64,000 nucleotides of DNA from Limnochordia bacterium (GCA_050951545.1 JBMNJG010000007.1:32001-96000), one strand, 5' to 3'; numbered from the stretch's first letter, positions 596 to 39,543 are shown. Numbers and translations: made by a program. Notes: generated by a model not told the origin, from the sequence alone.

Positions 596-716
596 TCGCC
601 CAATAGCTGGTGCCCTCGGCAGCCAGACGCCTTTCTCCACCTGATTGATCCCCCGGCAGCGATGAAACCAGCGAGCATCGGCCGCTTTTTGCCGAGTTGG
701 GTGATGTAACCAGCCT
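596..716 (+). repeat. Degenerate upstream copy of the repeat found at 2160-2645
   Basis: GAAACCAGCGAGCATCGGCCGCTTTTTGCCGAGTTGGGTGATGTAACC aligns with GAAACCAGTGAGCATCGCCCCCTTCTTGCCAAATCAGGCGATGTAACC (~2592-2639); CGCCCAATAGCT also occurs at 2162. Confidence 0.7.
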
Positions 717-872
717 GTGCATCGCCCACGACGGCCTAGCACTGTTCTACCCTGATGCCCCCATTACGACCGGAAAACGTGCCATCGCGCCTCGCTTTGA
801 AGAGCTGGGTTCACGCCCCTATGCGTTTTGTCTGAATCGACCTTTTGATGAAGGGACTCTACCGGAGTGTGT

Positions 873-905
873 CGAACATGTATTCGGGAACCGAACAGAC
901 ATTCT
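873..905 (+). promoter_or_regulatory. Tandem LexA/SOS (Cheo) box-like operators
   Basis: CGAACATGTATTCG (873-886) and CGAACAGACATTCT (892-905) vs Firmicute consensus CGAAC-N4-GTTCG; immediately upstream of GGAGGTG RBS. Confidence 0.7.
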
Positions 906-922
906 GGCTGGAGGTGGCACCC

Positions 923-1951
923 TTGGATATCGAAGAGGTTCGCGTGCCGATCTCGTTGCTGCTCACTAGCCAGTTAAGAGCGACGGATAAGGTAGTCTGG
1001 CTGGCCCTCACACTCGACGCTGAGTTGGGGGAGCGAGCTCGTCTGTCGCCCACTCGCTTGGCTGCTCGTACCGGTTTGTCCCGACCCACCGTCCGCAAGG
1101 CTACGACAAGGCTAACCACTGAGGGCTGGTATAACCTGCCCACAGGCGTCAACCAGGCCCCAGCAAAAGAGCTGTCGGGACCAAGGGTGGTCATGCCTAC
1201 TGAGCTGATCATTGCCACCGAAGTCAGTGCTCAGGCCAAGGTGGTCTATGGTGCACTGCAGGCCACGCTCGATTACCGTAATCTGCAGGGCGTGTTCACA
1301 TATGCATCTGTGGCCCGGATGATGAGTCTAGACGCCAAGACGGTCAAGCGGGCCGCTCGACAACTGGCCAAGCTGGGCTGGCTGGAGATGCAGCAAGAGC
1401 ACAAGCAGGCTCCCATTTGCTTCAGCCTCTGCAACCCAGTCGCCCGCAGGTACATGGATGAACTGCTAGCGGCGCAGCAGCGACTCGACGAGGCTGAGTT
1501 CTTCGGACAGGCCTTGATGCAGGAATACCTATCGGCTATTTTCGACTCCGATGACCACAAAGACAACGCGTCTCCCCGTTTTCTAGTCAACCCGGCTACT
1601 GGCATGTTACTGGAGCTCGACCGCCACTATGACCTCGAGGCGGTGGCTTTTGAGTTTAACGGGCCACAACACTACACCCCTACCAAACGGTTCTCGGCTG
1701 ACGTGGTCGCCAAGCAGATGGAACGTGACAAGACCAAGCGTGAATTGTGTGAGAAGAACAAAGTCACGTTGGTTGTGATCCATGCCAAGGACCTGTCCTG
1801 GCTCACCATGAAGTTCAAGGCCGGCCAACTGCTGCCGTTGCGAAGCGACCTTAACAAGAAACTCCTCAGGTACCTCGATCTGAGGAGTCGCTTCTACCGC
1901 GAGACGGCTAAGGGTGGCTGGGCGCCCACCAGTGACGCTGCCAGCGAGTAG
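923..1951 (+). CDS. Tandem winged-HTH protein with C-terminal Vsr/DUF559/EDxHD-like nuclease domain (paralog 1)
   Basis: Two HTH-like segments (SPTRLAARTGLSRPTVRKA; TYASVARMMSLDAKTVKRA) and nuclease-like motif LELD...AFEFNGPQHY...QMERDKTK; TTG start 923 after GGAGGTG, preferred over track start 845. Confidence 0.75.
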   Translation: MDIEEVRVPISLLLTSQLRATDKVVWLALTLDAELGERARLSPTRLAARTGLSRPTVRKATTRLTTEGWYNLPTGVNQAPAKELSGPRVVMPTELIIATEVSAQAKVVYGALQATLDYRNLQGVFTYASVARMMSLDAKTVKRAARQLAKLGWLEMQQEHKQAPICFSLCNPVARRYMDELLAAQQRLDEAEFFGQALMQEYLSAIFDSDDHKDNASPRFLVNPATGMLLELDRHYDLEAVAFEFNGPQHYTPTKRFSADVVAKQMERDKTKRELCEKNKVTLVVIHAKDLSWLTMKFKAGQLLPLRSDLNKKLLRYLDLRSRFYRETAKGGWAPTSDAASE

Positions 1952-2224
1952 CCAACGGCGACGAAGAGTGCGCCATAGCCTCGAATCATCTCTCCCCCTT
2001 CACCGATAGGGGTCTCAGCAACCTCTCGCTGCCGCTCGCTAAAGCGGGTGTCGCTATGCCCTCGCCAGGTGCCCTCGGCACGAGTCGTGACAATAGCAGA
2101 CCCGTGGTGCGCCAACGGGCGCTGCGCTTCCTGCTGTAACCGCCTCGAAATCACAATGTTCCGCCCAATAGCTATTTGCCTTGCCCAGAGCCCGCCTCGT
2201 CGCCTGGTCGGCCTCCTGTGATCG

Positions 2225-2645
2225 AAGATGAGACTGGCCAGCAACGGCCCCTTCTTGCCGATTTGGGCAATGTAACCGACCTGCGCCCCGACCCGGACCC
2301 CGACCCGGACCCCGACTCACCAGCCGGGTCCGGGACTGACGGAAGCGAAATCGATGGGCATCGCCCCCTTCTTGCCGATTTGGGCAATGTAACCGACCTG
2401 CGCCCCGACCGACCAGCCGGGTCCGGGACTGACGGAAGTGAAATCGATGGGCATCGCCCCCTTCTTGCCGATTTGGGCAATGTAACCGACCTGCGCCCCG
2501 ACCCGGACCCCGACCCGGCCCCGACCCGGACCCCGACCCGGACCCCGACCCGGACCCCGACTCACCAGCCGGGTCCGGGACTGACGGAAGCGAAACCAGT
2601 GAGCATCGCCCCCTTCTTGCCAAATCAGGCGATGTAACCGACCCG
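2225..2645 (+). repeat. Tandem array of four units with embedded 12-bp microsatellite (CCCCGACCCGGA)n
   Basis: Core CTTCTTGCCGATTTGGGCAATGTAACCGACC at 2251, 2368, 2461 and (diverged) 2613; 2, 0 and 5 microsatellite units between cores. Confidence 0.95.
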
Positions 2646-2824
2646 GGCCTCGAGCCGGGCCCCGACCTGTGCCCCGGTAACGTGAAGCTTGTCAGGTACC
2701 TAGAACGGTTGATCTTTCTGCTACAAGGGAGGAAGTGTACGTTACATGCGTAACCTCAGTGTAAGCGAGAGACTTCGCGGCAGGGCCGCATTTCGGACCT
2801 AAGCCGCAGTATAGAACGGGGGCC

Positions 2825-4210
2825 ATGCCCATGGCTGTAGCGGACCTAAGACCGTACGCGGCACTCTTAACGGGGTACACCGAATTACGGCTACAGGAGA
2901 ACAGGTCAACTGGTGTGTCTTTTCTCAACGGTAGTAACACCGGTAACTCGCGCAGTAGCTCACGCGGGGTATCTGCTCGCGTCTACCGAAACGGCTCATG
3001 GGGCTTTGCATCTAGCCCAGATCCCAACGATGAGAGCATTAGGGCCGTCATCCGGTTAGCTCAGGATAATGCCGCCTTTCTTCACTCGCGGGGCGATCGG
3101 GACCGGGGGCCCTTGCCTTTCACGACAGCCAACGCAGAAAGCGACTTTTCTACGACGAGATCTAGATTTGCGCAGAAGGACTTGCTCGCTTTCGGCAAGG
3201 AAGCCGATAGCTACATTGCGGAGAAGTACCCGGATCTGACGAGTAGGACCGTCCATTTGAGTAGCCTTGAAATGGAAAAAACGGCACTTAACTCGGAGGG
3301 TTCTTGCTTTCACTCGCTTACACCCAGAAGCTATGTCTACATCCGTCTGGCCACACAGGCTGACGATGGGCCGGTGGAGGTGGGTGATCTCATCGGAGGA
3401 CTAGGCCAGTTTGAGGATACTCTTCCCTCGCCTGGGGACCTGCACGAGATGGTGGACCAGCTTTATGAGCACCTGATGCGCAAGAGGGAGGGTGTATTTG
3501 CCGAGGCCGGGGAAAAGATCTGTATTCTCGATGCCAAACTGGGTGGCATCTTGGCGCACGAGGCCATTGGGCACACAACTGAGGCAGATCTGGTACTCTC
3601 CGGGTCGGTGGCTGGTCGCCTGCTGAATCAGGAAGTGGCCAGCCCCTTGGTAACCTTGGTTGATTTTGCCCATACGGCGTTTGGCGAGGTGTGTCCCGTA
3701 CCAGTGTACGTTGACGACGAGGGCACGGTTGCCCAGGACGTCACCATTATTGAGCACGGTGTGCTCAAAGGCTTCATGCACAACAAGGAGTCGGCACGAT
3801 TGTTTGGCGTGGCCCCTACCGGCAACGCCAGAGCTTATACCTTCGCCGATGAGCCCCTTATCAGGATGCGCAATACAGCCATTGTTCCAGGCGCCAGCAA
3901 GCTGGACGACATGATCGCCTCTGTTGACGACGGCTACTATCTCATTCAGGCCAGTAACGGCCAAGCGGACTCCACGAGCGAGTTCATGTTCGGCGTTGTG
4001 CTGGGATATGAGATCAAGAATGGCAAACTGGGCAAGGCGCTCCGGGATACCACCATCTCTGGGGTGGCCTACGACGTGCTGAAGACGGTCACCATGGTCT
4101 CGGACCAGCTCTGGTGGAGCAATGGCGGCATGTGCGGCAAGAAACAGGCTATCCCAGTTGGCATGGGCGGACCGGCCATCAGGTGTCAGATCACTCTAGG
4201 AGGGCGATAA
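2825..4210 (+). CDS. tldD: TldD metalloprotease subunit
   Basis: HEAIGH zinc motif, DDEG, RMRNT, CGKKQ...PVGMGGP. Confidence 0.93.
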   Translation: MPMAVADLRPYAALLTGYTELRLQENRSTGVSFLNGSNTGNSRSSSRGVSARVYRNGSWGFASSPDPNDESIRAVIRLAQDNAAFLHSRGDRDRGPLPFTTANAESDFSTTRSRFAQKDLLAFGKEADSYIAEKYPDLTSRTVHLSSLEMEKTALNSEGSCFHSLTPRSYVYIRLATQADDGPVEVGDLIGGLGQFEDTLPSPGDLHEMVDQLYEHLMRKREGVFAEAGEKICILDAKLGGILAHEAIGHTTEADLVLSGSVAGRLLNQEVASPLVTLVDFAHTAFGEVCPVPVYVDDEGTVAQDVTIIEHGVLKGFMHNKESARLFGVAPTGNARAYTFADEPLIRMRNTAIVPGASKLDDMIASVDDGYYLIQASNGQADSTSEFMFGVVLGYEIKNGKLGKALRDTTISGVAYDVLKTVTMVSDQLWWSNGGMCGKKQAIPVGMGGPAIRCQITLGGR

Positions 4211-4212
4211 TC

Positions 4213-5508
4213 ATGAACCGTCACGATGAAGCCGCTCATCTGGCGCTTGGTGCACTGCTGAAGGCCGGGGCTGATAAGGCTAGCTGTGGGGTGAGTACAT
4301 CCACCACGCATGAGTTAAACGTGGAACGGGCAGAGATAGGCCTGCTACGCACGACGATGGACGTCGGGGTGCACCTGATGGCCATTAAGGACCAGAAAAA
4401 GGGGAGCATGAACCTCAACAGTCTGGAGCAACCAGCCATAGACCAAGGGGTTGCAGACACCCTCGCCATGGCAGCGGCATCTCAGCCTGACCCGGCCTTC
4501 GACATCGCCGAGGCTCAGGAGCCAGCTCGCTTCGAGTCTGGGAGCAGCGAACCTGATCTGGACGGGATGTATGATCGGGTCAAGGAGTTCTTGGCTGCAG
4601 TGGCGGCCAAGTACCCTAGCGTAATGCTGCGCCAGGCCTACCTAAGCTTCGGGCACCGCAACATGAGCCTAGTCAACTCCAACGGGATCCACTTTCAGAC
4701 CGCCCAGGGGACCTACCACTTCACGGCCCTGTTTTCGGGGCGGGAAGGCGACGATGTCTCCTCGTTTAACTACACCGGATTCTCGATGCGTGACTTGGAG
4801 CGGAAACTGTTGGAGTGTGGATCGCTGGATACCATGCTGCGTCAAGCTACGGAGCAAGTGCGTACGCGCCCGGTGCAGGGCAAGTTCACAGGGGATCTGG
4901 TCATTGCACCGGATTGCCTGGGTACCTTAATCGGCTTTCTCACCGGGCCGCTGACTGATGGGCCACTTATCTCCGGCACCAGCCTCTACAAGGACAGTCT
5001 GGGCGAGGAGATTGCTAGTCCTCAGTTTACGCTTCATTCCCGGCCAGTCTCTTCTGAGATCGCTAGCGGGTATTTTGTCACGGGTGACGGATATGCTGCC
5101 GAGAACAGTACGATCATTGACCGCGGCGTTCTCCGGACTTATTTGCTCAGCCTGTACGGTGCCAACAAGACGGGCCGGCAAAGAGCGCCGAACAGAGGCG
5201 GCGCTTATGTAGTTGAGCCGGGCGATATCTCCTTAGAGGGCCTGATCGGCCAGGTGAAGCAAGGGGTGCTGTTGACTCGCTTCTCAGGTGGGTCACCTAG
5301 CTCTAACGGCGACTTTTCTGGTGTCGCCAAGAACAGCTACTACATCGAAGACGGAAGAATTGCCTATCCTATTAGGGAGACAATGGTGTCTGGCAATTTC
5401 GCGGAGGCTGTCCGCAACTTGACGGCGATTTCCAAAGAGCGAGTGGACTACGGTTCGGCTATTCTACCTTGGGTTTCGATGCCAGGCATCACCATTTCGG
5501 GCAGGTAG
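4213..5508 (+). CDS. pmbA: PmbA/TldE protease subunit
   Basis: Follows tldD; GDFSG, I.DG.I.YPI.ETMVSGN motifs; no HExxH; ATG at 4213. Confidence 0.9.
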   Translation: MNRHDEAAHLALGALLKAGADKASCGVSTSTTHELNVERAEIGLLRTTMDVGVHLMAIKDQKKGSMNLNSLEQPAIDQGVADTLAMAAASQPDPAFDIAEAQEPARFESGSSEPDLDGMYDRVKEFLAAVAAKYPSVMLRQAYLSFGHRNMSLVNSNGIHFQTAQGTYHFTALFSGREGDDVSSFNYTGFSMRDLERKLLECGSLDTMLRQATEQVRTRPVQGKFTGDLVIAPDCLGTLIGFLTGPLTDGPLISGTSLYKDSLGEEIASPQFTLHSRPVSSEIASGYFVTGDGYAAENSTIIDRGVLRTYLLSLYGANKTGRQRAPNRGGAYVVEPGDISLEGLIGQVKQGVLLTRFSGGSPSSNGDFSGVAKNSYYIEDGRIAYPIRETMVSGNFAEAVRNLTAISKERVDYGSAILPWVSMPGITISGR

Positions 5509-5538
5509 GAGCCGCACCTCACCCTCAGTGCAGTGTGG

Positions 5539-5567
5539 TTGCCTGTGTTGTCCAATCGTGATATACT
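5539..5567 (+). promoter_or_regulatory. SigA promoter of rpsF operon
   Basis: TTGCCT-17 bp-TATACT with extended TG. Confidence 0.65.
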
Positions 5568-5573
5568 TTGGCG

Positions 5574-5630
5574 TAACCCTGCTCCAGGGTGGCGCCTGGG
5601 GCCGTCATGTCCAGAGGGAGGAGGTGTGCC
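5574..5630 (+). promoter_or_regulatory. Probable S6:S18 ribosomal protein leader RNA
   Basis: GC hairpin (CCAGG..CCTGG) and CCG between promoter and the rpsF RBS; position matches the known autoregulatory leader. Confidence 0.5.
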
Positions 5631-5634
5631 AACG

Positions 5635-5928
5635 GTGCGTCCTTACGAAGTGGTGACCATTTACAACCCTGGTCTAGAAAGTGAAGAAGCCTACGACGCT
5701 CAGATCGAGCGCTTTGCGTCTCTTATCGCCAATGAAGGCGGCGAGCTCGTCAATGTGGAGAAGTGGGGTAGGCGGCGGCTCGCTTACGAGATTGCAGGAC
5801 TAACCGAGGGCTACTATGTGATGATGCGGTTCAACGCGGAGCCAGCAGTGGCTGGCGAGCTTGAGCGCGTCATGAAGATCACTGATACAGTAGTCCGGCA
5901 CCTGTTGGTTCGGCTGGAGGAAAACTAG
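5635..5928 (+). CDS. rpsF: 30S ribosomal protein S6
   Basis: RPYEVVTI, WGRRRLAYEI; GTG start after GGAGGTG. Confidence 0.97.
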   Translation: MRPYEVVTIYNPGLESEEAYDAQIERFASLIANEGGELVNVEKWGRRRLAYEIAGLTEGYYVMMRFNAEPAVAGELERVMKITDTVVRHLLVRLEEN

Positions 5929-5967
5929 GCCCCGGGCGCAAGTATTCCACGGGGAGTGTGATTCAGC

Positions 5968-6360
5968 ATGCTGAACAGAATAGTGCTCATTGGGCGATTG
6001 GTTGCGGACCCACAATTGCGTTATACCCACAGCGGTGTAGCGGTTGCGAATATGCGAATCGCCGTAGACAGGCCTTTCACGAACCAACAGGGCGAACGAG
6101 AGACTGATTTCATTGACATAGTCTGTTGGCGCAAACTGGGGGAAACTGTGGCCAATCATCTCACCAAGGGTCGGCTGATCGCCGTCGATGGACGGCTTCA
6201 GATTCGGCAGTATGAGTGGGAAGGTCAGAAACGTCAGGCCGCAGAGGTGTATGCAGATGACGTGCGCTTCCTCGATAGCAAACGCGATGCTGGCGGCGCG
6301 CCACCTGCTGGCGCACCTGGCGATTTCCCAGAGCCAGGTATTGATGAGGTCCCGTTCTGA
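5968..6360 (+). CDS. ssb: Single-stranded DNA-binding protein
   Basis: MLNRIVLIGRLVADP; acidic tail DEVPF. Confidence 0.97.
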   Translation: MLNRIVLIGRLVADPQLRYTHSGVAVANMRIAVDRPFTNQQGERETDFIDIVCWRKLGETVANHLTKGRLIAVDGRLQIRQYEWEGQKRQAAEVYADDVRFLDSKRDAGGAPPAGAPGDFPEPGIDEVPF

Positions 6361-6406
6361 TGGATCGTAGAGGCTAGTGCGGCGCTTGTCATGAGGAGGG
6401 TTCATT

Positions 6407-6634
6407 TTGGCAAGAGAGCGCGGCAGGAAGCGCAGGAAGGTTTGTAGCTTCTGCGTGGATAAGGTAACAGCAATTGATTACAAAGAGGTAGGGCGGCTGC
6501 GCCGTTTCTTGACGGAGCGCGGGAAGATTCTTCCTCGTCGCATCTCGGGAAACTGTGCAGGTCATCAAAGACAGCTTACGCAGGCTATCAAGCGGGCGAG
6601 GCAACTGGCCATGCTGCCTTACTCTGCGGACTAA
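6407..6634 (+). CDS. rpsR: 30S ribosomal protein S18 (zinc-binding form)
   Basis: CSFC...IDYK...[17 protein letters not shown]. Confidence 0.97.
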
Positions 6635-6841
6635 CTGGTGACGAACGAGCCTCTTTCCACAAAGAGTACTGTCGGCACCGTGAACGCACGGTACCGACGG
6701 TGGTTGGCAAACGGGCTGCAATAGCGGCCCGTTCGTCGTCGCTGACGGGGTCTTCTCACTGCCTGAATGCACTAGGTGTGGATGAGGCAGGACAAGGCTC
6801 TTGTTTCGAGGAACTGATGCCGAGGCAATAATAGCGCGAGG

Positions 6842-7762
6842 GTGGGCCGTATGTCCTCTGATCCTGGGGCGCAGATGGGTCGTGAGCGCCTGATACTGAT
6901 CTTCATCACTCTGATCACGGCCGTCTTGGGCACGATATTTTCTTCCATGCTTGTGTTCGCTCCGGCCCCCTTGGCAGTGCTTCTGTACAGACATGGGTTG
7001 CGCTCCGGCATATCTACAGCTCTGCTGTCAGGGCTCGTCGTTGGGGGATTGATGCAACACCCGATTCCGATGATACTCGTCCTGTTTGTGCTAGGGTTGG
7101 GGGTTGCGATCGGCGAAGCGTGGCGCGACGGGCTGACGCTGCGGCAGACTCTGACAGTGGGCTGGGGGGCTGCTTTCCTGGCTTTCGCAGCTTTCTTCAT
7201 CGTGTCGAAACTGGTGTTCGGCATCGATCTGCTAGATGAGGCTTTGAAGCTGTGGGTTGAGCAATTGGGCCGCATAGGTACTGTTGGCGGAGCCCTGCCT
7301 CTTTCGGAGGCTGAGTTGGCGAAGATCTCCAAGCACCTACGGACGGTGTGGCCGGGAATGATGGCTATGTCGTCCGCGTGTATCTGTTTTGCGAATTACT
7401 GGCTAGCTGGGCGTTGGCTCTTGCGCTTGGGGGCGGACGTGCCTTGGTTTCCACCCTTTGCTCACTGGCGTTTCCCGTGGTATTTCACCTGGGGCTACAT
7501 CGCCGGGATAGGGTTGCCTCTGCTTCCGGCTGGTCTGCAGACGTCGTGGTTGCTTGCCCTGGCGGCCAATCTAGAGATGATATTCCGGTTTGTGTTTGCG
7601 GTTCAAGGGCTGGCTGTGGTTTGGTTCTATCTATCTAGATGGGGTGTTCGCAAGTGGGTGACCATCATCATTGCGGTGCTTTCCACGATACTGATGCCCC
7701 TGCTGGTTTTTGTGGGATTGCTAGACTCCTGGTTTGACCTAAGGCGCCTCGATCTGCTATAG
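6842..7762 (+). CDS. yybS: YybS/DUF2232 membrane protein
   Basis: Polytopic hydrophobic protein, QGLAV and GLLDSWFDLRR; conserved position between rpsR and rplI; start uncertain. Confidence 0.85.
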   Translation: MGRMSSDPGAQMGRERLILIFITLITAVLGTIFSSMLVFAPAPLAVLLYRHGLRSGISTALLSGLVVGGLMQHPIPMILVLFVLGLGVAIGEAWRDGLTLRQTLTVGWGAAFLAFAAFFIVSKLVFGIDLLDEALKLWVEQLGRIGTVGGALPLSEAELAKISKHLRTVWPGMMAMSSACICFANYWLAGRWLLRLGADVPWFPPFAHWRFPWYFTWGYIAGIGLPLLPAGLQTSWLLALAANLEMIFRFVFAVQGLAVVWFYLSRWGVRKWVTIIIAVLSTILMPLLVFVGLLDSWFDLRRLDLL

Positions 7763-7829
7763 ATGGTGAAATAGAGGGTGCTGATGGCAATAGTGCAAGC
7801 TGAGAACGATCATCATCGGGGGGTTGAGC

Positions 7830-8276
7830 ATGCGTATCATCCTAACTCAGGACGTAGAAAAAATCGGCAACAGAGGCGACATCGTGAATGTGGCCGATGG
7901 CTATGCACGTAACTACCTCATGCCGCGCGGGATGGCTATTCAGGCCACCAAGGCCAATTTGCGGCAGTGGGAGCATGAGAAGAATGTCGCGGGCAAAAAG
8001 GTGCTGAAAGAGGAAGAGGAGGCCAAGGCGCTGGCTGAGCGCTTGTCTGGAGTCACGGTAACGATCACCGCGAAGACAGGCGAAGGTGGCCGTCTTTTTG
8101 GCTCTGTGACCTCTCAGGATGTAGCCGATGCTGTGCAGAGTGCCTGCGATGTGGAGCTAGACAAGCGGCGCATTGACATGGCTGAGCCCATCAAGAACTT
8201 GGGTGAGTATGTGGTTCCCGTAAAGCTTTACCAAGGGGTTAACGCAGAGGTTATGGTGAAAGTGGTTGCTGAGTAG
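7830..8276 (+). CDS. rplI: 50S ribosomal protein L9
   Basis: MRIILTQDV..G..GD.V.VADGYARNYL; GRLFGSVT. Confidence 0.97.
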   Translation: MRIILTQDVEKIGNRGDIVNVADGYARNYLMPRGMAIQATKANLRQWEHEKNVAGKKVLKEEEEAKALAERLSGVTVTITAKTGEGGRLFGSVTSQDVADAVQSACDVELDKRRIDMAEPIKNLGEYVVPVKLYQGVNAEVMVKVVAE

Positions 8277-8377
8277 CAACCCATGGGCTGGCCGGGCTGG
8301 CCCGCGTGCAGGTTTGGGGGGCTAACCTCACAGATGCCCGCTTGGGGGGGAGGGCGGCGCCCGGTGCCGCAAGGTTC

Positions 8378-10441: not shown

Positions 10442-10456
10442 CTAGGAGGGCTAGCT

Positions 10457-22675: not shown

Positions 22676-22760
22676 CCCTTCGGTAACCCGGCTGTCTGAA
22701 GAGTCCAGACCCGTGGCTTTGCGTCTCTGCCTCACGACGGAGTTGCCCGTATCGGGGAAG
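22676..22760 (-). ncRNA. Cyclic di-GMP-I (GEMM) riboswitch
   Basis: Minus strand GGGCAACTCCGTC-GTGA-GGCAGAG-ACGCAAAGCCACGGGTCTG..CAGACAGCCGGGTTACCGAAGG matches GEMM-I architecture (GGGCAA, GNRA loop, CGCAAAGCC, GGGTTACCGA). Confidence 0.88.
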
Positions 22761-30544: not shown

Positions 30545-31515
30545 GCATCCAGCTGACCCGTCTGGAGGGTGAGGGACGGCACGTGGTCCTGTTCGTGTTG
30601 GGGAGTCTCGCGCTGTTGGTGGCCTTTTGGCTACTCGTGTATATGCCGTCTAAGGCAGAGTTGACGCAACTACGTGCAGAGATCGCGGGGATCAAAGACA
30701 GCCTTGGTGCCGCAGAGGCGGTACAGCACCAGCATGGGGCTACTATGTCTTCCTATCGAGAGGCTCGCCACCAGGCCGGGAATCTGCTGAGCAAATTCCC
30801 CCGTGAAGACGACCTGCCCGAAATCATGGAAGCGTTTGACAAGGTAGCGCGCAGTCAAGGCGCCAGAATAGAGACTACCGACTACTCAGCAGTGAAGTGG
30901 GACCCTGTCTTGGGGCGCGTGCAGGTGACGGCTATGCTCAGAGGCGGCTACCCGGCGATAGGGGCCACGGCGATCAACATCGCGCGTGTGCTGCCCTCCG
31001 CTCGCTTGGAGCAGATGCGTGTCAACGCCCGGCAAGCGGCTGAAGCAAAGGGTCAGAACGCCGCTACGGATCTCCGGGTGGACTACCTTGAAGCGGAGAT
31101 GGTTTTTTCCATCTTGCTCGTGGCCAGTAGAGGCACCGAGCGGACAGACGGCGCTGATGACAATCAGCCGCCTCGAGGCGATCCGCGATTGGTTCAGCTT
31201 CTGGAGAACCAAGGAAGTTGGTACCCCAGACCAGCAGGCGGCACGTCCTTGGGGACGTACGATCTCTTTCGGCCTTCTGCAAAGGCAAGGGAAATGATAG
31301 CGCTGCTGCAGACGTTGGAGAGGTATCAGAAGGCACGGGTAAGCGGGATCGCGCAGAGCGGTGCTCGTCAGATCGCTACAGTCAACTTTGAGGGTCGCAC
31401 GTACCGATTACAGCCTGGAGATCAGTTGGTGCAGGCTCGGGTGAGCAGTGTCAGTAGAGATGGAGTTACGCTGAGTATTGCAGGGCGGACCTTGATGCTT
31501 AGATTGGGGGAGTAA
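30541..31515 (+). CDS. pilO: PilO-like protein with C-terminal PilP/GspC-like extension
   Basis: N-terminal TM, coiled coil, P...DLP, GGY; tail SGIA..G...A.V...G..Y.L.PGD. Confidence 0.6.
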   Translation: MSIQLTRLEGEGRHVVLFVLGSLALLVAFWLLVYMPSKAELTQLRAEIAGIKDSLGAAEAVQHQHGATMSSYREARHQAGNLLSKFPREDDLPEIMEAFDKVARSQGARIETTDYSAVKWDPVLGRVQVTAMLRGGYPAIGATAINIARVLPSARLEQMRVNARQAAEAKGQNAATDLRVDYLEAEMVFSILLVASRGTERTDGADDNQPPRGDPRLVQLLENQGSWYPRPAGGTSLGTYDLFRPSAKAREMIALLQTLERYQKARVSGIAQSGARQIATVNFEGRTYRLQPGDQLVQARVSSVSRDGVTLSIAGRTLMLRLGE

Positions 31516-31517
31516 GA

Positions 31518-32654
31518 GTGAATAGACATGTGCTACATGTGATGTTGTGTGTCATGCTCTTGGTCATGGTACAAGCTGTCGTGGTAGCAGATGCCTCGCA
31601 GCCACCGTTGGTTGATCTCGAGTTTCGGGATGCGGAGATCCTAGATATCTACCAGGTGTTGGGTGATCTGGCAGGCTGGAACGTCGTTGCCGATCAGAGT
31701 GTCAAGGGCAAGTTTGGCTTATCGTTGCGTGCCACTCCCCTCACCCAAGCCCTAGACCTAGTAGCGCAATCGACGGGTTTTGGTTACCACCTCATGGGTA
31801 ATACGCTGGTCGTGGTACCAGCAAGTCGCCTGAAGGCGATGGCTCCCCGCGATTTCGCCCTGCTTTCTGTGAGACACATGGCACTGGAGACCGCCAAGGC
31901 GCTGTTGGAGGCTGGAGTGCCGGGCGTCACTGTCAGTTTGGACCAGAGACAGCGGGCAGTGCTCGTGCAGGGGACGGCTGCGGAGGTGCAAGATGCCCAA
32001 GCGGTACTGGCCAAATATGACGTGGCTCCCACCGAAAACGAGTTTGACTTTGTCGACCAGTCAGTAGCCGAAATACTACGCACGCTGGCCAAGAGTGCAG
32101 GGCTCAATGTGCTCGTGGAAGGGGCGATCAGTGGTCGGCTGACCATCTATCTGAAGGATGTCTCGGCACGTGAGGCGATCAACCTGGTAGCAGAAAGAAC
32201 AGGTGTGGTTCAAGAAGAGACGGCAGACAACATCCTGATTTTGCGCCAAGGCACCGCCAAACCAGCGCTGGTGGAGCCAGTCGATAGCCGTATTCTTCCC
32301 CTAAAGTACCTACCGCTTAATACAGGAAAGGAACTGATTGTAGCAGCCTTTCCACGCATGGATGTCCGTACCGGTCAGGGTGGCAACTTTTTGGTGGTGC
32401 AGGGGCCTGCCAGTCAGCTCGATGCAGTGGAGGCCTTCTTGGCCGAGCAGGATTTCCCCGTCGTCCGTCTGGTTGGCTTAGTCCAGCACGACACAGGTCT
32501 GAGGGCGTTACTAGAGATCGCTGGTCGTTCGCATATCGTGCGCGAGGGCCAGGTCCTAGATGATCTGGTGGTGGAGCGCATCACACAGACGAGTGTTGTC
32601 GTACGTAAGGGAGAGCGGACACAGACCCTGACGGCAGGTGGTGCAGGCCAGTGA
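31518..32654 (+). CDS. Secreted protein of secretin N-terminal (STN/N) domains lacking the pore domain
   Basis: Signal peptide; two copies of L.F.D..I..I...LA...G.NV motif, each followed by an N-domain-like segment. Confidence 0.65.
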   Translation: MNRHVLHVMLCVMLLVMVQAVVVADASQPPLVDLEFRDAEILDIYQVLGDLAGWNVVADQSVKGKFGLSLRATPLTQALDLVAQSTGFGYHLMGNTLVVVPASRLKAMAPRDFALLSVRHMALETAKALLEAGVPGVTVSLDQRQRAVLVQGTAAEVQDAQAVLAKYDVAPTENEFDFVDQSVAEILRTLAKSAGLNVLVEGAISGRLTIYLKDVSAREAINLVAERTGVVQEETADNILILRQGTAKPALVEPVDSRILPLKYLPLNTGKELIVAAFPRMDVRTGQGGNFLVVQGPASQLDAVEAFLAEQDFPVVRLVGLVQHDTGLRALLEIAGRSHIVREGQVLDDLVVERITQTSVVVRKGERTQTLTAGGAGQ

Positions 32655-34342
32655 AGAGTGTGACGGGTGCCAGACACACAGCTTTCATCGGGCGACTGAT
32701 CGTGGCAGTCGTCTGCACCCTGGGGTGGTTGTTGGCTGCGGGGCCATCTGCTGTAGCAGCCCAACCACTGGCACCAGAAGCCTCAGGCTTAGTTACTCTC
32801 TCGCTACATGACGCTGATGCCAAGAGCGTGTTTACGCTCTTGGCTGAGCTGGCGGGTCTTAATCTCGTCGTGGACCCTGCAGTACAAATGCCTGTGACCA
32901 TCTCACTGCGTGAGGTGCCTGTGCGAGAGGCGATAGCCCTCAGTGCCAAAGCTGCCCGAGCTTCGGCTGTGATCACGGGGGATCTCCTTGTGGTGAGCGC
33001 AGTCGAGTCGATGGAGGGTGACCGGCCTTCGTTGGAGGCAGTGCTGACGAACGTCTACATGTTACAGCACGTTGAGCCAAACAAGGTGGTCGAACTGGCC
33101 AACCTGGTGGTGCCCACACTCAAGGTCAGTGGTGATGAGACCACCAAGCGCCTGGTTGCTCGGGGCACGATGGCTGAGCAAGAGGAGTTCGCGCAGTTTC
33201 TCAGCCAGTTTGATCGCCCATTGCGGCAAGTGCTTATCGAGGCCCGGGTGGAGGAAGTATCACGCGAAAGTGCGCGTTCTCTTGGTGTGCGATGGAGTAT
33301 ACCCAAGATTTCGGCTCAGTGGAATGCCGAAATTGGCTCACTGCCGTTCTCTGTGGAGAAGCTTGAGGCTCAGCTGGATGCGTTGGAGGAGACTGGGCAT
33401 GCTCGCCTATTGGCCCGACCGAATATCACGGCGGTTAGCGGCGAGAAGGCCACCATATTCGTCGGCGATCGCATCCCGATTGTCCTCAAGGGTGGGCCGG
33501 AAGAGCGCGACCGCATCGAGTACATCGAGGCTGGCATACAGCTAGAGATCGTGGCCAGAGTGGGTGATGATGGCCTAATCACCACTCACGTGAAGCCGCA
33601 GGTCAGTAGTATTGTCGGTCAGACAGCCACGGAAGGCCTACCACACATTCGTACCCGGACTGCAGAAACGACGGTGCGTGTTGTTGATGGCGAATCGATC
33701 GTTATCGGTGGCCTGATTCAAGAAGAAGACCGGGAAGGTATGGCTGGTTTGCCCGGCCTGGGGAGCTTGCCTATCGTGGGAACGCTGTTTCAGAGGGATG
33801 AGATCAAGGGCAGGCAGTTTGAGACCCTGATTATCCTTACGCCCCACATTGTCGATGGGGCATCAGGGGAGGTCGCCTACAGAGATCGTGTGCAGCAAGA
33901 TCATGACTGGCTCACTCCACTGCCCGCCGTCGATATAGAGACCCGAGAGAGGCGGTTTGCCCCGCGGGCGGTGCTCAGCATAGCCTTACCAGCCTCTGCG
34001 CAGGGGGAGGTAGCTCTTGGCTGGGCCAATCAGTGGTCGCGTTGGGAGATGCGTTTGGCCTTGGCCTTTCAGGACACGGAAACCGACAATCTGCGCTGTG
34101 GCCTAGGGTGGCGTATTGACGATCGCTGGGCATGGTTGCGCGTGGGGGGCGACGCAGTGCTCTCCACCGATGCTCTCGCGAAGCGGCCGCGGTGGGAAGC
34201 GGAACTCGCGGTGGGGCTTAATCTGACGCCACGCAGCGATGTCTTCGTTGAGCCTTGGGCCAGCATGACATGGCCCGTAAACAGCCAAGGTTTCGGCGCC
34301 ATGCGCCCAGCTATCGGTCTTTCGCTTGGCGTGCGTAACTAG
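32651..34342 (+). CDS. pilQ: Secretin (PilQ/GspD family)
   Basis: FDRPLRQVLIEARVEEV, LARPNI, A.IFVGDRIP, GESIVIGGL, LPGLG.LP..G.LF, IILTPHIV. Confidence 0.88.
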   Translation: MKSVTGARHTAFIGRLIVAVVCTLGWLLAAGPSAVAAQPLAPEASGLVTLSLHDADAKSVFTLLAELAGLNLVVDPAVQMPVTISLREVPVREAIALSAKAARASAVITGDLLVVSAVESMEGDRPSLEAVLTNVYMLQHVEPNKVVELANLVVPTLKVSGDETTKRLVARGTMAEQEEFAQFLSQFDRPLRQVLIEARVEEVSRESARSLGVRWSIPKISAQWNAEIGSLPFSVEKLEAQLDALEETGHARLLARPNITAVSGEKATIFVGDRIPIVLKGGPEERDRIEYIEAGIQLEIVARVGDDGLITTHVKPQVSSIVGQTATEGLPHIRTRTAETTVRVVDGESIVIGGLIQEEDREGMAGLPGLGSLPIVGTLFQRDEIKGRQFETLIILTPHIVDGASGEVAYRDRVQQDHDWLTPLPAVDIETRERRFAPRAVLSIALPASAQGEVALGWANQWSRWEMRLALAFQDTETDNLRCGLGWRIDDRWAWLRVGGDAVLSTDALAKRPRWEAELAVGLNLTPRSDVFVEPWASMTWPVNSQGFGAMRPAIGLSLGVRN

Positions 34343-34358
34343 GAGGTGACAGATACCT

Positions 34359-34832
34359 GTGGGTAGAGCCAGAACCAGAGCCGCTGAGGCGGGGTATACC
34401 CTCTTAGAGGTGATCGTGGTGATCACCGTGCTCATGATACTGAGCGGGGCGGCGCTCAGCATGATGCGCAGTGGCACCACCTCTGCAGCTCGCTTCAGGT
34501 ATCTGTTCAACGCTCAGACCCGTCTGACCAGGGTTATCAAGGAGATCAGCTACGGCTATGGGGGTAGCCAAGGTGCAGCAGGTGCGTCCAAGGTTGAGAA
34601 ACTGGAGGATGGCTCTTTGCGCATCGATGACGTGGAGTACTTCATGGAGGGCAGTACGTTGAAGCGTAGGCGGGCGGGAAACGAGAGCGTTGTTCTAACT
34701 GGGGTCGAGAGCTTTGAGCCCACAGTGACTGGGCAAGTGCTCAGCATCATCTTGGCCGAGGCTCCCGCAAAGGCTGGGGGCCAGGGATTACGCGTGACCC
34801 AACGCGTCTTCCTGCGAGGTGTTGGCCCATGA
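34359..34832 (+). CDS. Minor pilin
   Basis: Prepilin motif AG|YTLLEVIVVI. Confidence 0.8.
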   Translation: MGRARTRAAEAGYTLLEVIVVITVLMILSGAALSMMRSGTTSAARFRYLFNAQTRLTRVIKEISYGYGGSQGAAGASKVEKLEDGSLRIDDVEYFMEGSTLKRRRAGNESVVLTGVESFEPTVTGQVLSIILAEAPAKAGGQGLRVTQRVFLRGVGP

Positions 34833-35182
34833 GAGGTGACGATCGTGGAGCGACCCTTATCGAAGTGATCATGGGTATTGTGCTTCTGGGCCTCTTGGCA
34901 CCTGTCATCTTCTATATGGTTTTCTCGATCAGCCAGAGCTTCAGGCGGACCATGGAGCAGGAGCAAGTCTACCAGTTGGTGCAGTCAGCGATAGAACAAG
35001 CGAAAGCCACTGGTCCTGAGACAGTCGGTGAAAAGATCGCAACCTCCCTGCCACCCGGCTACTCCGTCGAGGTGGCCCAAGAGGATCCGCAAGTGGACGA
35101 ACTCGATGTGGCGGCTTATCGTGTGAGGGTTGCCAAAAGCGATGGCACAAGGTTCGAATTCGCGTATTACTGGAAACCGTAG
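34829..35182 (+). CDS. Minor pilin (PilV-like)
   Basis: RG|ATLIEVIMGI. Confidence 0.8.
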   Translation: MRGDDRGATLIEVIMGIVLLGLLAPVIFYMVFSISQSFRRTMEQEQVYQLVQSAIEQAKATGPETVGEKIATSLPPGYSVEVAQEDPQVDELDVAAYRVRVAKSDGTRFEFAYYWKP

Positions 35183-35214
35183 GGCGCAGCCTGCGGATGG
35201 AAAGGAGTTAGCCT

Positions 35215-36567
35215 ATGCTATCTACGGGCAGAACCACCAGGATTCTCGCCAAGGAAGAGCGGGGTTCTGTGATGATCACCGTTATGATCTCTTTCTTGCT
35301 CGCTGCCTCAATTCTGGGGGCGACCACGGTGATGGTGCCAGTGCTCTGGCGCAATACGACAGCCTTTGGTCGCCAGATGCTGGCCATGCAAGCTGCGGAA
35401 TCCGGACTGGAGCATGCCAAAGCGTGGATAAAGGTGAATGGGCTAGCCAAGTTCGGTGGGGAATACCCTCACACGCCCACGAAGGCTCAGCATGCCGTCG
35501 CTGATGGGGGTTCGTTTGCGGTGGTGTACGCGGACGGCAGACTGATCTCAACGGCCACCTACGCTGGTGTGAAGCGCACTGTAAGTGCCGCGGTGGCGAA
35601 CACAGGTCACCCTACGGCGGCGATCTATGGCACGAGCGGAGATGACGGGAAGTGTTTCGAGATGATGGGGTCGGCAAAGATCGACGGCTCCGTGGCCGTT
35701 GCGGCAACAGGAAGAAACTCCGTCTCTCTGAAGGGCAGTTCCGAGGTGACTGGAGATTTCCTTGTCGGCCCTGGAGGAAATCCAGCTCAGGTGATCTCCG
35801 GGCGGGAGCACATCAGAGGAGATGTTGACGCCCTCGCAGCGACGCCGAGCTACCTTCTCCCCCCCTTCCCGTCGTTTCCCAAGGACAAGTCACCTCGCGA
35901 TGACGTCAGCACGAAGACGAAGAAAGAGATCACCGAGAGCGGGTACTACCCAAAGATAACGGTTGAGAAAGGTGACACACTGACCTTTGATGTCTCAGCG
36001 GGCGACCTGGAGATCTGGACGAGTAGCTTGGACCTCAAGAACGGTCACATTCAGTTGGTAGGGGAGCACAGGCTGTATCTGTACGTGGATGGCAAGGTTA
36101 ATCTTCAGCAAGGCTCGACCATCAACAGCGGGGGTGACTCCGAGGCCTTGGTGGTCTACTACAGCGACAAGCACCAGATCAAGTTTCACAAAGACACGAC
36201 CTTTGTGGGAACGCTGTATGTCGGAAGCAAGGACGCGAAGCTCGAATTCGCCAGCGATGATTCCGAGTCCGAGGAGAACATCCTCGGTGGTAGTCGTTTT
36301 AGGGGCAGCATAATCTCCGCTGGTGAGTCCATTACGTTCAAACACGGAGCGTCGTTTGAGGGAATGCTCTACGCGCCGGACGCTCGTTTGTCGATGCGAA
36401 ACAGCGCGTCCATTAGCGGGAGCCTCGTCAGCAAGAGCATAGAGATGCGTCACGCATCGATGGTTACCTATGAACCCGTCGATGTCGCTGGTATACCTGG
36501 TATCGGTATCCCCGCCTTCGAGGACGGCGAGATCTCCTTCGCGGGGTGGCGCGTGGTCAACCCTTAA
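35215..36567 (+). CDS. PilX-like minor pilin/adhesin with beta-solenoid-like C-terminus
   Basis: ERG|SVMITVM, A.QAAESG.E.A, repeated F.G.LY/G.LYAP strands. Confidence 0.75.
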   Translation: MLSTGRTTRILAKEERGSVMITVMISFLLAASILGATTVMVPVLWRNTTAFGRQMLAMQAAESGLEHAKAWIKVNGLAKFGGEYPHTPTKAQHAVADGGSFAVVYADGRLISTATYAGVKRTVSAAVANTGHPTAAIYGTSGDDGKCFEMMGSAKIDGSVAVAATGRNSVSLKGSSEVTGDFLVGPGGNPAQVISGREHIRGDVDALAATPSYLLPPFPSFPKDKSPRDDVSTKTKKEITESGYYPKITVEKGDTLTFDVSAGDLEIWTSSLDLKNGHIQLVGEHRLYLYVDGKVNLQQGSTINSGGDSEALVVYYSDKHQIKFHKDTTFVGTLYVGSKDAKLEFASDDSESEENILGGSRFRGSIISAGESITFKHGASFEGMLYAPDARLSMRNSASISGSLVSKSIEMRHASMVTYEPVDVAGIPGIGIPAFEDGEISFAGWRVVNP

Positions 36568-36751
36568 GTCAGAGGAGTACACACGGAAAATAGCCGCGAA
36601 CTGCCGCTCGCGCCGTCGCCGTGTCTCTTGGTACACCCGAAAATCAGTGCAGACGTGTAGCCCTGATCGCCGGCGGCGGGTGGACGCGCACTAGCATTGG
36701 CTGCACGGCTGATGTGAGCCCTGACGAAGTGGACGAGGTTACCCAGGGTGA

Positions 36752-37813
36752 TTACTCGTCTTGCGTTTCCTCTGATTCGCTGGCGGTTCCCCAGCCACGT
36801 TCATCTATTCTTTGCTGGTACTCACCGCATCTACACTCGAGATAGTTGATGAGCTTCCGGTTGAAGTCCTGACCGCGCCGGAATGGCAGCCGCCTGTGAA
36901 TCTTGCGCTTGATGATCTTGCAGGACAGCTCGTGAGCCTGAATCACGATCAGCTTGATCTTCTTCTTAGCGCAGATCTGCTGTTTGGTCTGGTCACGGCA
37001 TTGCTGCTTATGGACCTGCTCAGCCGAATTCCGCTCCGTGACGCGGTAGTGTTGCGCCCCATTGAACTCCATGGCCGTATTGTGCAAGTAATAGAAGAGA
37101 TCGACCTCCAGACGCTTGCCAGTTGCTGGGTTCCTCATGAAACCTGGGCGCATTCCGTCGTCGAAGTCAAGGCAATCGACAAGCGCCAAGAAGATAGCCT
37201 GCATGAGAGCCTCTCCGAGGTGCGTAGCGCGGTGGAGCTCATCCTGCACGTCTAGTATTTCTTTTACATTTCGCTTATCAACCGGGTTGTGGAGAGTGAA
37301 GCGAATCGGTGCCCGCTTGTGCGCCTGCTCCATCTCCAGCCAACCATGCTTGGCCAACTGACGAGCCGCGTGTTTGATGGTTTGGGGGCTCAGACTCATC
37401 CGGCCGGCTAACTCAGCGTATGTGAACTGCCTTTTGCGAGGTGGGTCCGTAGGTTTGGACAGCAGTAGGGCATAAACCAATTTGGCCTGTGCATGGATTT
37501 CAGTAGCCATGACTAGCTCGACAGGCACGGAGACCCTGTCCGGGGATGGCTTCTGTGCCGCGGTCTGGCTAGGTCCCCGCCTAGCCGGTGGAGCAAACCA
37601 GCCCTCGGTGGTTAGCTTGGCTGTCGCCCTGCGAACGGTAGGCCGGGACATACCCGTGCGCCGCCCCAGGCGGCTGGGCGAGAAAAGGAAACTTTCCTCC
37701 AGCTGATCATCCATCGTTAAGGCCATCCAAACGATCTTCTCGCTGGCTTTTAGCTCGCGAGTCAGTAGCAGTGAGAGCGGCACGTTCACCTCATCTACAT
37801 AGAGAGAGTACAA
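36752..37813 (-). CDS. Tandem winged-HTH protein with C-terminal Vsr/DUF559/EDxHD-like nuclease domain (paralog 2)
   Basis: Aligns end to end with 923-1951 (SPSRLGRRTGMSRPTVRRA; NPATGKRLEVD..AMEFNGAQHY..RDQTK); TTG start 37813 after GAGGTG. Confidence 0.75.
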   Translation of the reverse strand: MYSLYVDEVNVPLSLLLTRELKASEKIVWMALTMDDQLEESFLFSPSRLGRRTGMSRPTVRRATAKLTTEGWFAPPARRGPSQTAAQKPSPDRVSVPVELVMATEIHAQAKLVYALLLSKPTDPPRKRQFTYAELAGRMSLSPQTIKHAARQLAKHGWLEMEQAHKRAPIRFTLHNPVDKRNVKEILDVQDELHRATHLGEALMQAIFLALVDCLDFDDGMRPGFMRNPATGKRLEVDLFYYLHNTAMEFNGAQHYRVTERNSAEQVHKQQCRDQTKQQICAKKKIKLIVIQAHELSCKIIKRKIHRRLPFRRGQDFNRKLINYLECRCGEYQQRIDERGWGTASESEETQDE

Positions 37814-37831
37814 GGGCCTCACCTCACACAA

Positions 37832-37866
37832 CGACCGTGTGTTCGATTGTCTCGATGCGATGTTCG
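37832..37866 (-). promoter_or_regulatory. Tandem LexA/SOS box-like operators
   Basis: Minus strand CGAACATCGCATCG (37866-37853) and CGAACACACGGTCG (37845-37832) just upstream of the RBS. Confidence 0.55.
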
Positions 37867-37976
37867 GTACGTGAGGCCAGAATCCTTCCACAGACAATAG
37901 TTCTTCGCTGACTGCGCGCGCATTGCCAGCCAAGACCCGGTGGCCACCGAAAGTGAAATGCGTTTCCCGTTCGGAT

Positions 37977-39543
37977 CATCGGCTGAGCGGCAAAAGGCTA
38001 TCGCCACCGTTCAGGTTATGTACCGCCCAGAAGGCTCCAGAAGGGCCGCCAGGGCGGGAAAGCGTGCCCTTGGGCGGGGAAAGGAGCCCTTCGGGCGCTC
38101 AAGATGAGCAAAAAGGGCTTCGCGAAGGCCGCATCGCTGCACTTTTACCACGTACATTGGGCCCGGGGGTTAATGGGGCGGCTCTTCTGCCATCGCCGTC
38201 CGATCCTTGGCCCCGACTCACGTACCAAATCCGGGTGCATCTGGCCGACTACCGAGCCAGTCTCGCGAGCGTGTGCATGGTGTCCGTCCACCCTTTTCGA
38301 AACACACCGACCGGGATAGCAGTGAAGGTGGGTCCGCAGAGGGACCCGAGTGAGCCCGCCGTGATCGCGCACTGGGGAGCTGACCCCATCGACTGAGTGG
38401 GAAAAAGGTATCACCACCGTCGGGTTATGTACCGTCCGGAAGCTCCAGAAGGGCCACCAGGGCGGGAAAGCGCGCTCTTATGGCGGGGAAAAGAGTCCTT
38501 CAGGCCGTCTAAACCAGCCAAAAGGGCTCCGCGAAGGCCGCATCGCTGCACTCTTACCACGTACATTGGGCCCGGGGGTTAATGAGGCGGCTCTCTTGCC
38601 ATCGCGGCCACATCCTTAGCCCGGCCTCACATACCAATCCGGCTGGTGTCTGACTGCAGGGCCTGTTTCGCGAGCGCGTCCATTGCATCTGTCCACCTTT
38701 TTCGAAATACACCGACCAGGGCAACACCGAAGGGGCGGTTCGCAGAGGGACCCGAGTGAGCCCGCCGTGATCGCGCACTGGGGAGCTGACCCCATCGACT
38801 GAGTGGGAAAAGGCTATCGACATTGTCTGGTTATGTACTGCCCAGTAGCTCCAGAAGGGCCACCAGGGCGGGAAAGCGCGCTCTTTTGGGGGGAAAAGAG
38901 CCCTTCAGGCCGTCCAAACCAGCCAAAAGGGCTCCGCGAAGGCCGCATCGCTGCGCTTTTACCACGCATCTGGCCTCGGGGGATACGCTTCACTTCGACC
39001 CTACCAGAATGGCCTAGAAAGCTCACGGTAAGCTAGGCTGACAAAACAGCGCGCTCACCAAAAACCTGCCATCGATCCAGACCCCAAGCTGCGGGCCATG
39101 GATTCTGATGGACAACTCCTCCATGAGTTGCCCACAGACTCCACAGCCCCGACCAAAGACATCCATTGATTCATTTATTCGTTGTTTCTGGCTGTTATCT
39201 AGTTGGGCACGCAGTTGTTTTCTTCGCGATGGTGCGCTGCCGCGGTAGGGGCCAACCCCCGGAATGCAGAAAACCCTCTTCTCGGGAAAAGAGTGAGCGT
39301 TCGAAGCATCCCCTCCAAACGGCTTGGTCGAGTGAGCCCGCCGTGATCGCGCACTGGGGAGCTGACCCCAATCGACTGAGTGGGAAAAGGCTATCGACAC
39401 TGTTCGGTTATGTACCGTCCGGAAGCCCCAGAAGGGCCACCAAGGCGGGAAAGTGTGCTCTCAGGCGGCGAAAAGCACCCTTCAGGCGGTCCAAACCAGC
39501 CAAAAGGGTTCCGCGAAGGCAGCATCACTGCGCTTTTGCCACC
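37977..39543. repeat. Array of four long direct repeats (periods 410, 406, 577 bp)
   Basis: CATCG.CTGAG.GG.AAA.G.TATC anchor at 37977, 38387, 38793, 39370; identical 42-bp block at 38347, 38753, 39329. Confidence 0.95.

Follow-up and report, generated by a model that had tools for sequence, protein, structure and literature searches.

The 64,000-nucleotide stretch of DNA from a Limnochordia bacterium that we have analysed (GCA_050951545.1 JBMNJG010000007.1:32001-96000; here called the window) contains two paralogous genes, at positions 923-1951 on the plus strand (P0001, 342 amino acids) and at positions 36752-37813 on the minus strand (P0002, 353 amino acids). Both encode proteins that combine two winged helix-turn-helix (wHTH) domains with a C-terminal Vsr-like nuclease domain. 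With moderate confidence, we take the two genes to represent one family of small single-gene transposable elements of a Limnochordia-like member of the Bacillota, and we propose that these elements are switched by LexA and driven by their nuclease. This agrees with an initial annotation of the window, whose overall interpretation, i.e. a multicopy and mobile nuclease family with repeats inside the element, is supported by our work. The two proteins share 48% identity over 344 residues (E 1e-107), and thus over their whole length, as expected for the paralogs that had been proposed at these positions. Several other features that had been read from the DNA were confirmed as well: Each gene starts with a TTG codon behind a GGAGGTG motif, an arrangement that is conserved in all four subfamilies described below and that coincides with the N-termini of the homologues. 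A repeat array is located next to each of the two genes, with cores spaced by about 94 nt in one case and units of about 405 bp in the other, and no open reading frame (ORF) for a transposase, an integrase or a methylase is present beside either window copy.

The assembly of this genome (G000; 3.64 Mb, 94% complete) was searched with the window genes, and this yielded 33 matches. A tblastn census identified 28 full-length copies as well as fragments, and the copies fall into four subfamilies, A with seven, B with 15, C with four and D with two members. In this census, the proteins are 96-100% identical inside a subfamily and 47-55% identical across subfamilies. The elements have a size of 1.5-4 kb overall (A, 1.85-2.0 kb; B, 2.3-4.1 kb), and with about 75 kb, corresponding to 2.1% of the assembly, they rank first in abundance among the genome's repeats. 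The boundaries of the copies are sharp, and the flanking sequences are unrelated from one copy to the next. The genome-wide count of paralogs suggested by the initial annotation has thus revealed a multicopy and mobile family, the opposite of the syntenic, vertically inherited single-copy genes that might have been found instead. Moreover, its statement that each gene stands alone is correct for the window, which holds just these two, but not for the genome. One of the seven copies of subfamily A and two of the 15 copies of subfamily B are frameshifted. Among the intact copies, the ratio of nonsynonymous to synonymous substitution rates (dN/dS) is 0.17, with the same value in A (15 pairs) and B (78 pairs), and the gene is under purifying selection among the copies.

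The ends of the elements are most informative for subfamily B. The B, C and D types have a common L end, GGGGCCACGCAAAAAACTGCGG (in C, GGGACCACGCAAAAGACAGCGG), and a common R end, ...CACGTGTGCACCC, which finishes in ...ATTTCACGTGTGCACCC. Both ends are readable at eight B loci, and at five of them the flanking 9 bp are identical (AGCTGCTTG, ACCATACGG, ACCTTCCCT, CTTCGCGAA and CACGCCCGA); among the remaining loci, eight of the nine positions match at one deletion derivative, the match is weak at one locus, and it is absent at another. Since the chance of a perfect anchored 9-mer is about 4e-6, the flanking repeats are target-site duplications, and the B type is a transposon with a 9-bp target-site duplication. 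For the C type, six to seven of nine positions match at one locus. In an anchored comparison of the L end with the reverse complement of the R end, 16 of 24 positions are the same (binomial probability about 2e-5 to 2e-4). In the C type, the gene is inverted as compared to B relative to the frame of the L and R ends, and the array stays beside L. The same B-type ends were found in a 437-bp non-coding element, X (C7:457714-458150 and ten partial copies), which occurs only at the 3' ends of B elements; one composite of B and X is bounded by a single perfect 9-bp duplication. One A copy has, on its C5:322271 side, the sequence GGGGCCACGCAA right behind the last A core; it equals the opening 12 nt of the L end of the B type and reads outward. 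A degenerate pattern of the L end detected a single genome contig, from another metagenome-assembled genome (MAG) but with the same C-type locus, and no metagenome contig. The shared ends and the 9-bp duplications indicate that these elements are true transposons, with no recognisable transposase besides the wHTH-nuclease.

These properties can be held against the idea of a host family of regulatory or DNA-repair paralogs that has been expanded by duplication and in which the repeats serve as regulatory sites. Purifying selection on the gene would be in agreement with such a family, and so would the names of the homologues, which refer to HTH or ArsR regulators. However, the copies are near-identical and have sharp ends and target duplications, some of them are frameshifted or bear stop codons, two genomes of the same genus (91% and 95% complete) contain no match to the gene, and the conserved active site of the nuclease has been retained. 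We consider a host paralog family to be extremely unlikely.

In agreement with the two HTH repeats claimed before, winged-helix models of Pfam (HTH_36, HTH_24, MarR, GntR) match both proteins at about residues 18-70 and 105-165. Across the last ~150 residues, there was no Pfam match over the cut-off, and NCBIfam as well as PADLOC returned only weak HTH rows; sub-threshold matches of the nuclease domain to DUF2726 were obtained for 11 of 21 members (best E 0.0016). The motif that had been read as the signature of a Vsr/EDxHD-type nuclease, NPATG..LE.D...A.EFNG.QHY...RD.TK..C, is present in both proteins, and its core (D233, E244, G247, Q249, H250, R268, D269 and K272) is invariant in 47 homologues. 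In two alignments (A1 with 47 and A2 with 21 sequences), the putative active-site residues D233, E244, N246, H250 and D269 show either no variation or a conservation of at least 90%, and they also line up with those of ORF194, a homing nuclease of the Bacillus phage 0305phi8-36. The spacing of 13 from D233 to N246 is the same as from D51 to H64 in Vsr; these Vsr residues and the active-site residues D196, N208, H213 and D222 of I-Bth0305I are as given in the accessible part of the respective report (PMC3239194), and the mapping onto I-Bth0305I was made by spacing and from this paper rather than by superposition at the level of residues.

The predicted structure is in line with these similarities. 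The full-length model has a pLDDT of 93.5 and a pTM of 0.87, and the C-terminal domain folded alone reached a pLDDT of 89.2. In a comparison with 48,161 chains, the C-terminal model matched Vsr (1cw0_A; Z 8.8, 104 residues aligned, root mean square deviation (rmsd) 2.7), the catalytic domain of I-Bth0305I (3r3p_B; Z 8.7, 93 of 98 residues), a RAP-domain protein (Z 8.2), the DUF559 protein 3hrl_A (Z 7.9) and TnsA (Z 6.8). A Z of at least 8 was reached by just three of these chains, and the full-length model yielded the same matches. Foldseek with the C-terminal model against the PDB gave nothing at E <=0.001, and a sequence-profile search of the PDB with the nuclease domain gave no match. Among viral models (BFVD), there were 95 matches at E <=0.001, some of them named homing endonuclease, VSR endonuclease, DUF2726 or DUF559. 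At the sequence level, ORF194 is 32% identical (BLASTP, E 3e-14; hhalign probability 98.8%), and the PHROG matches include the "homing endonuclease" family phrog_9084 (1.2e-9) as well as families named intron-encoded nuclease. By fold, conserved residues and homology to ORF194, the C-terminal domain belongs to the Vsr-like/EDxHD nuclease family, as the initial annotation had expected, and the conserved residues and the modelled fold suggest that the protein is catalytically active as a nuclease. Pfam and NCBIfam models of DDE, HUH, serine, tyrosine or DEDD transposases or recombinases did not match the protein; weak rows for IS21 and IS630 are limited to the HTH part and far under the cut-off.

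The homology to phage homing nucleases raises the possibility of a pure homing endonuclease gene that cuts its cognate empty site and is copied by homologous repair, with no transposition involved. The arrangement of DNA-binding modules and a Vsr-like domain is the design of I-Bth0305I, as described in the accessible part of PMC3239194, and induction by the SOS response would coincide with high recombination. Yet homing does not produce 9-bp target duplications, and the gene lies outside of introns, inteins and phages; at the window loci, there is no intron or intein that could provide the context of a homing gene. Moreover, since the 28 loci have unrelated flanks, there is no homology for repair-mediated copying. 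Pure homing is in our view improbable.

The repeat arrays are part of the elements; they occur in most copies, between the element ends, and differ from subfamily to subfamily. Elements of the A type consist of one core, a leader of ~210 nt with the LexA boxes, the gene, ~290 nt, and then three to five tandem cores. All 33 of the 37-nt A cores found in the genome (at most nine mismatches in 37) are located inside the seven A elements, and an array of one to six units lies upstream of each of the 15 B genes. The C elements carry a 262-bp array downstream, and no array was found in the D elements. About seven B arrays or solo units occur without a gene, and several of these are internal-deletion derivatives that have retained both ends. 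The check for co-occurrence of repeats and gene that had been proposed thus gave a positive answer: the repeats move inside the element. In the B type, units in register between copies are 92-93% identical as compared to 84-87% for neighbouring units out of register in one array. The higher similarity in register indicates that the array was present before the element multiplied and that it travels with the gene. The arrays are predicted to serve as binding sites for the winged helices.

Other ideas on the arrays were rejected. An RNA structure, as implied by the suggestion that the nuclease might be guided by its repeats, received no support from covariation: RNAalifold with 51 B units gave a positive, i.e. 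penalising, covariation term for both strands. Rfam had no match in either window element. A motif common to the units of A, B and C had been seen by eye, and a nhmmer profile of the 33 A cores matched no unit of B, C or D. The arrays do not appear to be duplicated ends, as the resemblance of the B end region to the unit is limited to 23 nt, with a score of 26 as compared to a shuffle maximum of 27, and the B tail has no resemblance to the B unit.

Tandem winged helices next to direct repeats are reminiscent of iteron-type replicons, and the elements might be integrated replicons, with the wHTH half in the role of a Rep initiator and the arrays in that of the iterons of an origin. Indeed, residues 1-173 match the Pi initiator on iteron DNA (Z 7.9, 163 residues, rmsd 4.0), the N-terminal half matches RepE54 (TM 0.47, probability 0.99), and the wHTH part matches PHROG families named replication initiation protein (3e-9). 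However, a Z of this size is common for winged helices, the units of 94, 262 and 405 bp are far from the ~20 bp of iterons, no circular form or excision joint is found in the read contigs, and a replicon would not be expected as 28 chromosomal copies with target duplications. In addition, none of 72,556 plasmid records matched the gene, and the analogy to Rep/iteron pairs that had been drawn from the sequence is not supported. We judge an origin from iteron replicons to be very improbable.

Another feature of the elements as transposable units is their putative control by LexA. Upstream of both window genes, the tandem SOS-like boxes noted before were recovered as matches to what we take to be the consensus of the Cheo-type LexA box. 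The A gene is preceded by two such boxes at 873-905 on the plus strand (CGAACATGTATTCG at 873-886 with one mismatch and CGAACAGACATTCT at 892-905 with two mismatches), the B gene by two at 37832-37866 on the minus strand (CGAACACACGGTCG at 37845-37832 with one mismatch and CGAACATCGCATCG at 37866-37853 with two mismatches). A perfect CGAACTTTTGTTCG box is present upstream of the genome's own lexA gene. In 27 of the 28 copies, covering all four subfamilies, a Cheo-type box with at most one mismatch is located at -30 to -50; the whole genome holds 134 such sites. Apart from the box, the upstream DNA of the four subfamilies does not align. In other genera (eight genomes), nine of 20 copies have such a box within 200 nt upstream, and the 163 kb of these loci hold 16 such sites. 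The predicted LexA boxes are conserved across subfamilies and genera, and they suggest that LexA controls the gene and that DNA damage would induce it.

Based on these features, we propose a mechanism for the movement of the elements. LexA bound to the Cheo box would cover the promoter, and the weak TTG start would hold expression low. Upon DNA damage, LexA would be removed and the nuclease produced. The winged helices might then bind the element ends and the repeat units, and the nuclease would cut. The resulting breaks, together with SOS-induced host repair or ligation, could move or copy the array and the gene to a new site that is cut with a 9-nt stagger. Most likely, the nuclease itself drives mobility. 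This idea is suggested by three observations: the L and R ends are absent from every other repeat family of the genome, three diverged subfamilies have retained both the ends and the gene, and the gene is under purifying selection. Going one step further, the wHTH-wHTH-Vsr-like nuclease might be the transposase, and would then define a new nuclease-only class in prokaryotes, derived from homing endonucleases and characterised by winged-helix recognition of ends and arrays, cleavage of both donor and target (the latter with a 9-nt stagger), joining by SOS-induced host repair and a switch operated by LexA cleavage. We put forward this last proposal tentatively, and regard it as rather less than probable.

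The same elements might alternatively be passengers: units with L and R ends could be non-autonomous and moved in trans by a conventional transposase, e.g. of the DDE type, that is missing from the assembly or has escaped recognition, with the wHTH-nuclease as cargo. The cargo could be a selfish nuclease of the homing or addiction type, or it could have a host-useful SOS function. A 9-bp duplication in combination with imperfectly inverted ends classically marks DDE transposition, and such duplications are observed in the B type. The genome has several insertion sequence (IS) families with ORFs that, judged by eye, are IS4-like, IS1634-like and IS3-like, and with an assembly completeness of 94%, a matching transposase gene might be missing from the contigs. 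The passenger idea is also favoured by the absence of the L and R ends from the A type and from the loci of the relatives. However, all 44 matches to the L and R motifs with few mismatches belong to B, C, D or X elements or else to solo remnants, and none flanks another ORF. Three subfamilies with proteins that are about 50% different keep similar ends and always this one type of gene, a constancy that does not resemble variable cargo, and the dN/dS value implies that the protein is important to those lineages that multiply. Finally, the A type and the copies of the relatives are multicopy without L and R ends. Taken together, we regard a passenger role as unlikely and favour mobility driven by the nuclease.

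Several points weigh against a nuclease-driven transposable element. We know of no nuclease-only transposase, and because a nuclease alone is incapable of strand transfer, joining would need host functions. The possible location of a transposase gene in the missing part of the assembly belongs here as well. The A type has neither L and R ends nor a consistent duplication, and its shared 8-9-mers are inconsistently placed. In the B copy of the window, the ends have diverged and a duplication is not recognisable. A gapped global alignment of L and R is no better than with shuffled sequences, so that the inverted-repeat likeness is weak. In the relatives, the L and R ends are found in none of 20 loci, and they are thus not a feature of the whole family. 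Similarly, the adjacency of repeats and gene claimed by the initial annotation holds for all A and B genes of this genome but is not universal in the relatives, where local direct repeats lie beside the gene in six of the 20 loci, four of them long. In three DNA sequencing runs from three studies, both junctions of the A copy are spanned by contigs; this copy is fixed at its locus, and the only unusual joints at this copy result from array collapse, with no empty-site, excision or circle junction among them. In one RNA run, contigs were found on tldD/pmbA and none on the element, an outcome that is neutral with respect to its expression.

The family is distributed beyond this genome. The homologues form 111 clusters at 90% identity, with 149 representatives below 1e-30; where they have names at all, they are called "helix-turn-helix domain-containing protein" or "ArsR family transcriptional regulator", and they originate from Bacillota MAGs. 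Matches are present in 13 of 40 related genomes, with as many as 17 in a single genome and stop codons in some copies, i.e. the distribution is patchy and multicopy. An empty A site was not found in the same-genus genomes G001 and G002, in which only the tldD/pmbA side is common (73-74% identity) and other neighbours are located upstream; neither genome matched the B region. The element flanks have no second copy in the genome, and a 22-nt word from the left flank had no match in metagenome contigs. The organism was detected in metagenomes from bioreactors, digesters and landfills, with 16 runs holding at least half of the sampled words. In the three DNA runs mentioned above, the depth of the A element is several-fold that of its flanks. 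Literature searches at the level of the main texts found no printed description of the wHTH-nuclease element.

In the window, the A-type element extends from 674 to 2666 on the plus strand, a block that recurs with at least 88% identity at seven loci of the genome. It begins with the left copy of the 37-nt core (GCATCG...GTAACC; 675-711, plus strand), which is also the heart of each unit of the A array. The ribosome-binding site GGAGGTG (910-916) and the TTG start at 923 (910-925, plus strand) precede the gene, and the homologues begin at the same place. The array downstream of the gene (2241-2639, plus strand) consists of four cores at 2241-2277, 2358-2394, 2451-2487 and 2603-2639. The B-type element (36574-39590, minus strand) reaches from a diverged R-like end at 36574-36591 to the L end at 39569-39590 (minus strand), which has five mismatches to GGGGCCACGCAAAAAACTGCGG. 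This L end supplies the final seven codons and the stop codon, at 39566-39590, of the neighbouring ORF for a LuxR-type response regulator (39566-40624, minus strand), indicating that the insertion has replaced the original 3' end of this ORF. The B array upstream of the gene (37992-39542, minus strand) is split by a repeated 343-bp insert at 38981-39323. Three further copies of the insert (C13:19960-20302, C14:2153-2502 and C11:344587-344818) are all located in or beside wHTH-nuclease elements, and the insert may be a small element that targets the arrays of wHTH-nuclease elements.

Some observations concern other parts of the genome. A duplicated block of 12.8 kb (C8:5946-18787 and C9:61618-74470) adjoins two C-type copies and may be a segmental duplication or result from the assembly of two haplotypes. 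Two identical EF-Tu-like genes, at C4:227466-228662 and C4:243794-244990, represent a duplication of tuf. IS-like repeat families with two to five copies and long ORFs are present, for example, at C2:224847-226718, C9:24082-25803, C9:13347-15121 and C7:587472-588964; the ends of these conventional families have no likeness to the L and R ends. The window also contains a c-di-GMP-I-GGC riboswitch at 22678-22756 on the minus strand (60.4 bits, gathering score 59).

What do these elements mean for our view of mobile DNA? Homing endonucleases cut and are copied by repair, and transposons have their own ends and a target duplication. Should the nuclease be what moves the element, it would connect these two kinds of selfish DNA, which are as a rule regarded as separate, and add a class of transposases with a restriction-endonuclease fold. 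The element is compact, with just one protein and a putative switch of its own that responds to damage. On a cautious reading, the wHTH-nuclease elements are the dominant repeat of this genome (2.1%) and have spread in multiple copies among related Bacillota from anaerobic digesters. Because the databases list the protein only as an "HTH" or "ArsR" regulator, genome annotation misses a whole family of mobile elements.

The elements combine traits of several known systems. They share the Vsr-like catalytic fold and the behaviour of a selfish element with I-Bth0305I and with the free-standing ORF194, in the latter case with direct sequence homology of the nuclease domain. As in EDxHD homing endonucleases, the acidic, Asn and His positions of the active site are conserved, and the DNA-binding modules are N-terminal to the nuclease. 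Unlike these enzymes, however, the wHTH-nucleases are chromosomal instead of being borne by phages, introns or inteins, two winged helices replace the NUMOD motifs, and there are 28 copies at unrelated sites with B-type ends and 9-bp duplications, arrays and a LexA box. The many near-identical copies, the sharp ends and the 9-bp duplication are features of insertion sequences and of their non-coding derivatives, miniature inverted-repeat transposable elements (MITEs), as are the deletion derivatives and the 437-bp non-coding relative with the same ends; the weak likeness between the L and R ends might represent imperfect inverted repeats as well. In contrast to insertion sequences, the only protein matches none of the transposase models named above, long tandem arrays are located inside the element, and the orientation of the gene relative to the ends is flipped between B and C. 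TnsA of Tn7 is a transposase subunit with a restriction-endonuclease fold that works with the DDE protein TnsB; its PD-(D/E)xK-type nuclease fold is shared by the wHTH-nuclease, whose element is without a partner gene. With the RepE and Pi initiators, there is a middling likeness in the two tandem winged helices and the direct repeats beside the gene, whereas the wHTH-nuclease is not found on plasmids, has units of 94-405 bp and carries an additional nuclease domain. The comparison with RAYT/REP pairs made in the initial annotation is not supported, as Pfam finds no Y1_Tnp domain in the protein and the repeats are not dispersed away from the gene but confined, with all 33 A cores, to the A elements. 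Finally, the 13E12 repeats of Mycobacterium tuberculosis encode a protein that is presumably of the HNH type. According to the accessible part of the published work, they are multicopy, bound and controlled by LexA, induced by DNA damage, and described as insertion elements (PMC3381160). They belong to an unrelated phylum and have a different protein, and that part of the work reports no tandem arrays for them (PMC3381160). The 13E12 repeats can thus be compared to the wHTH-nuclease elements as an analogue in behaviour only.

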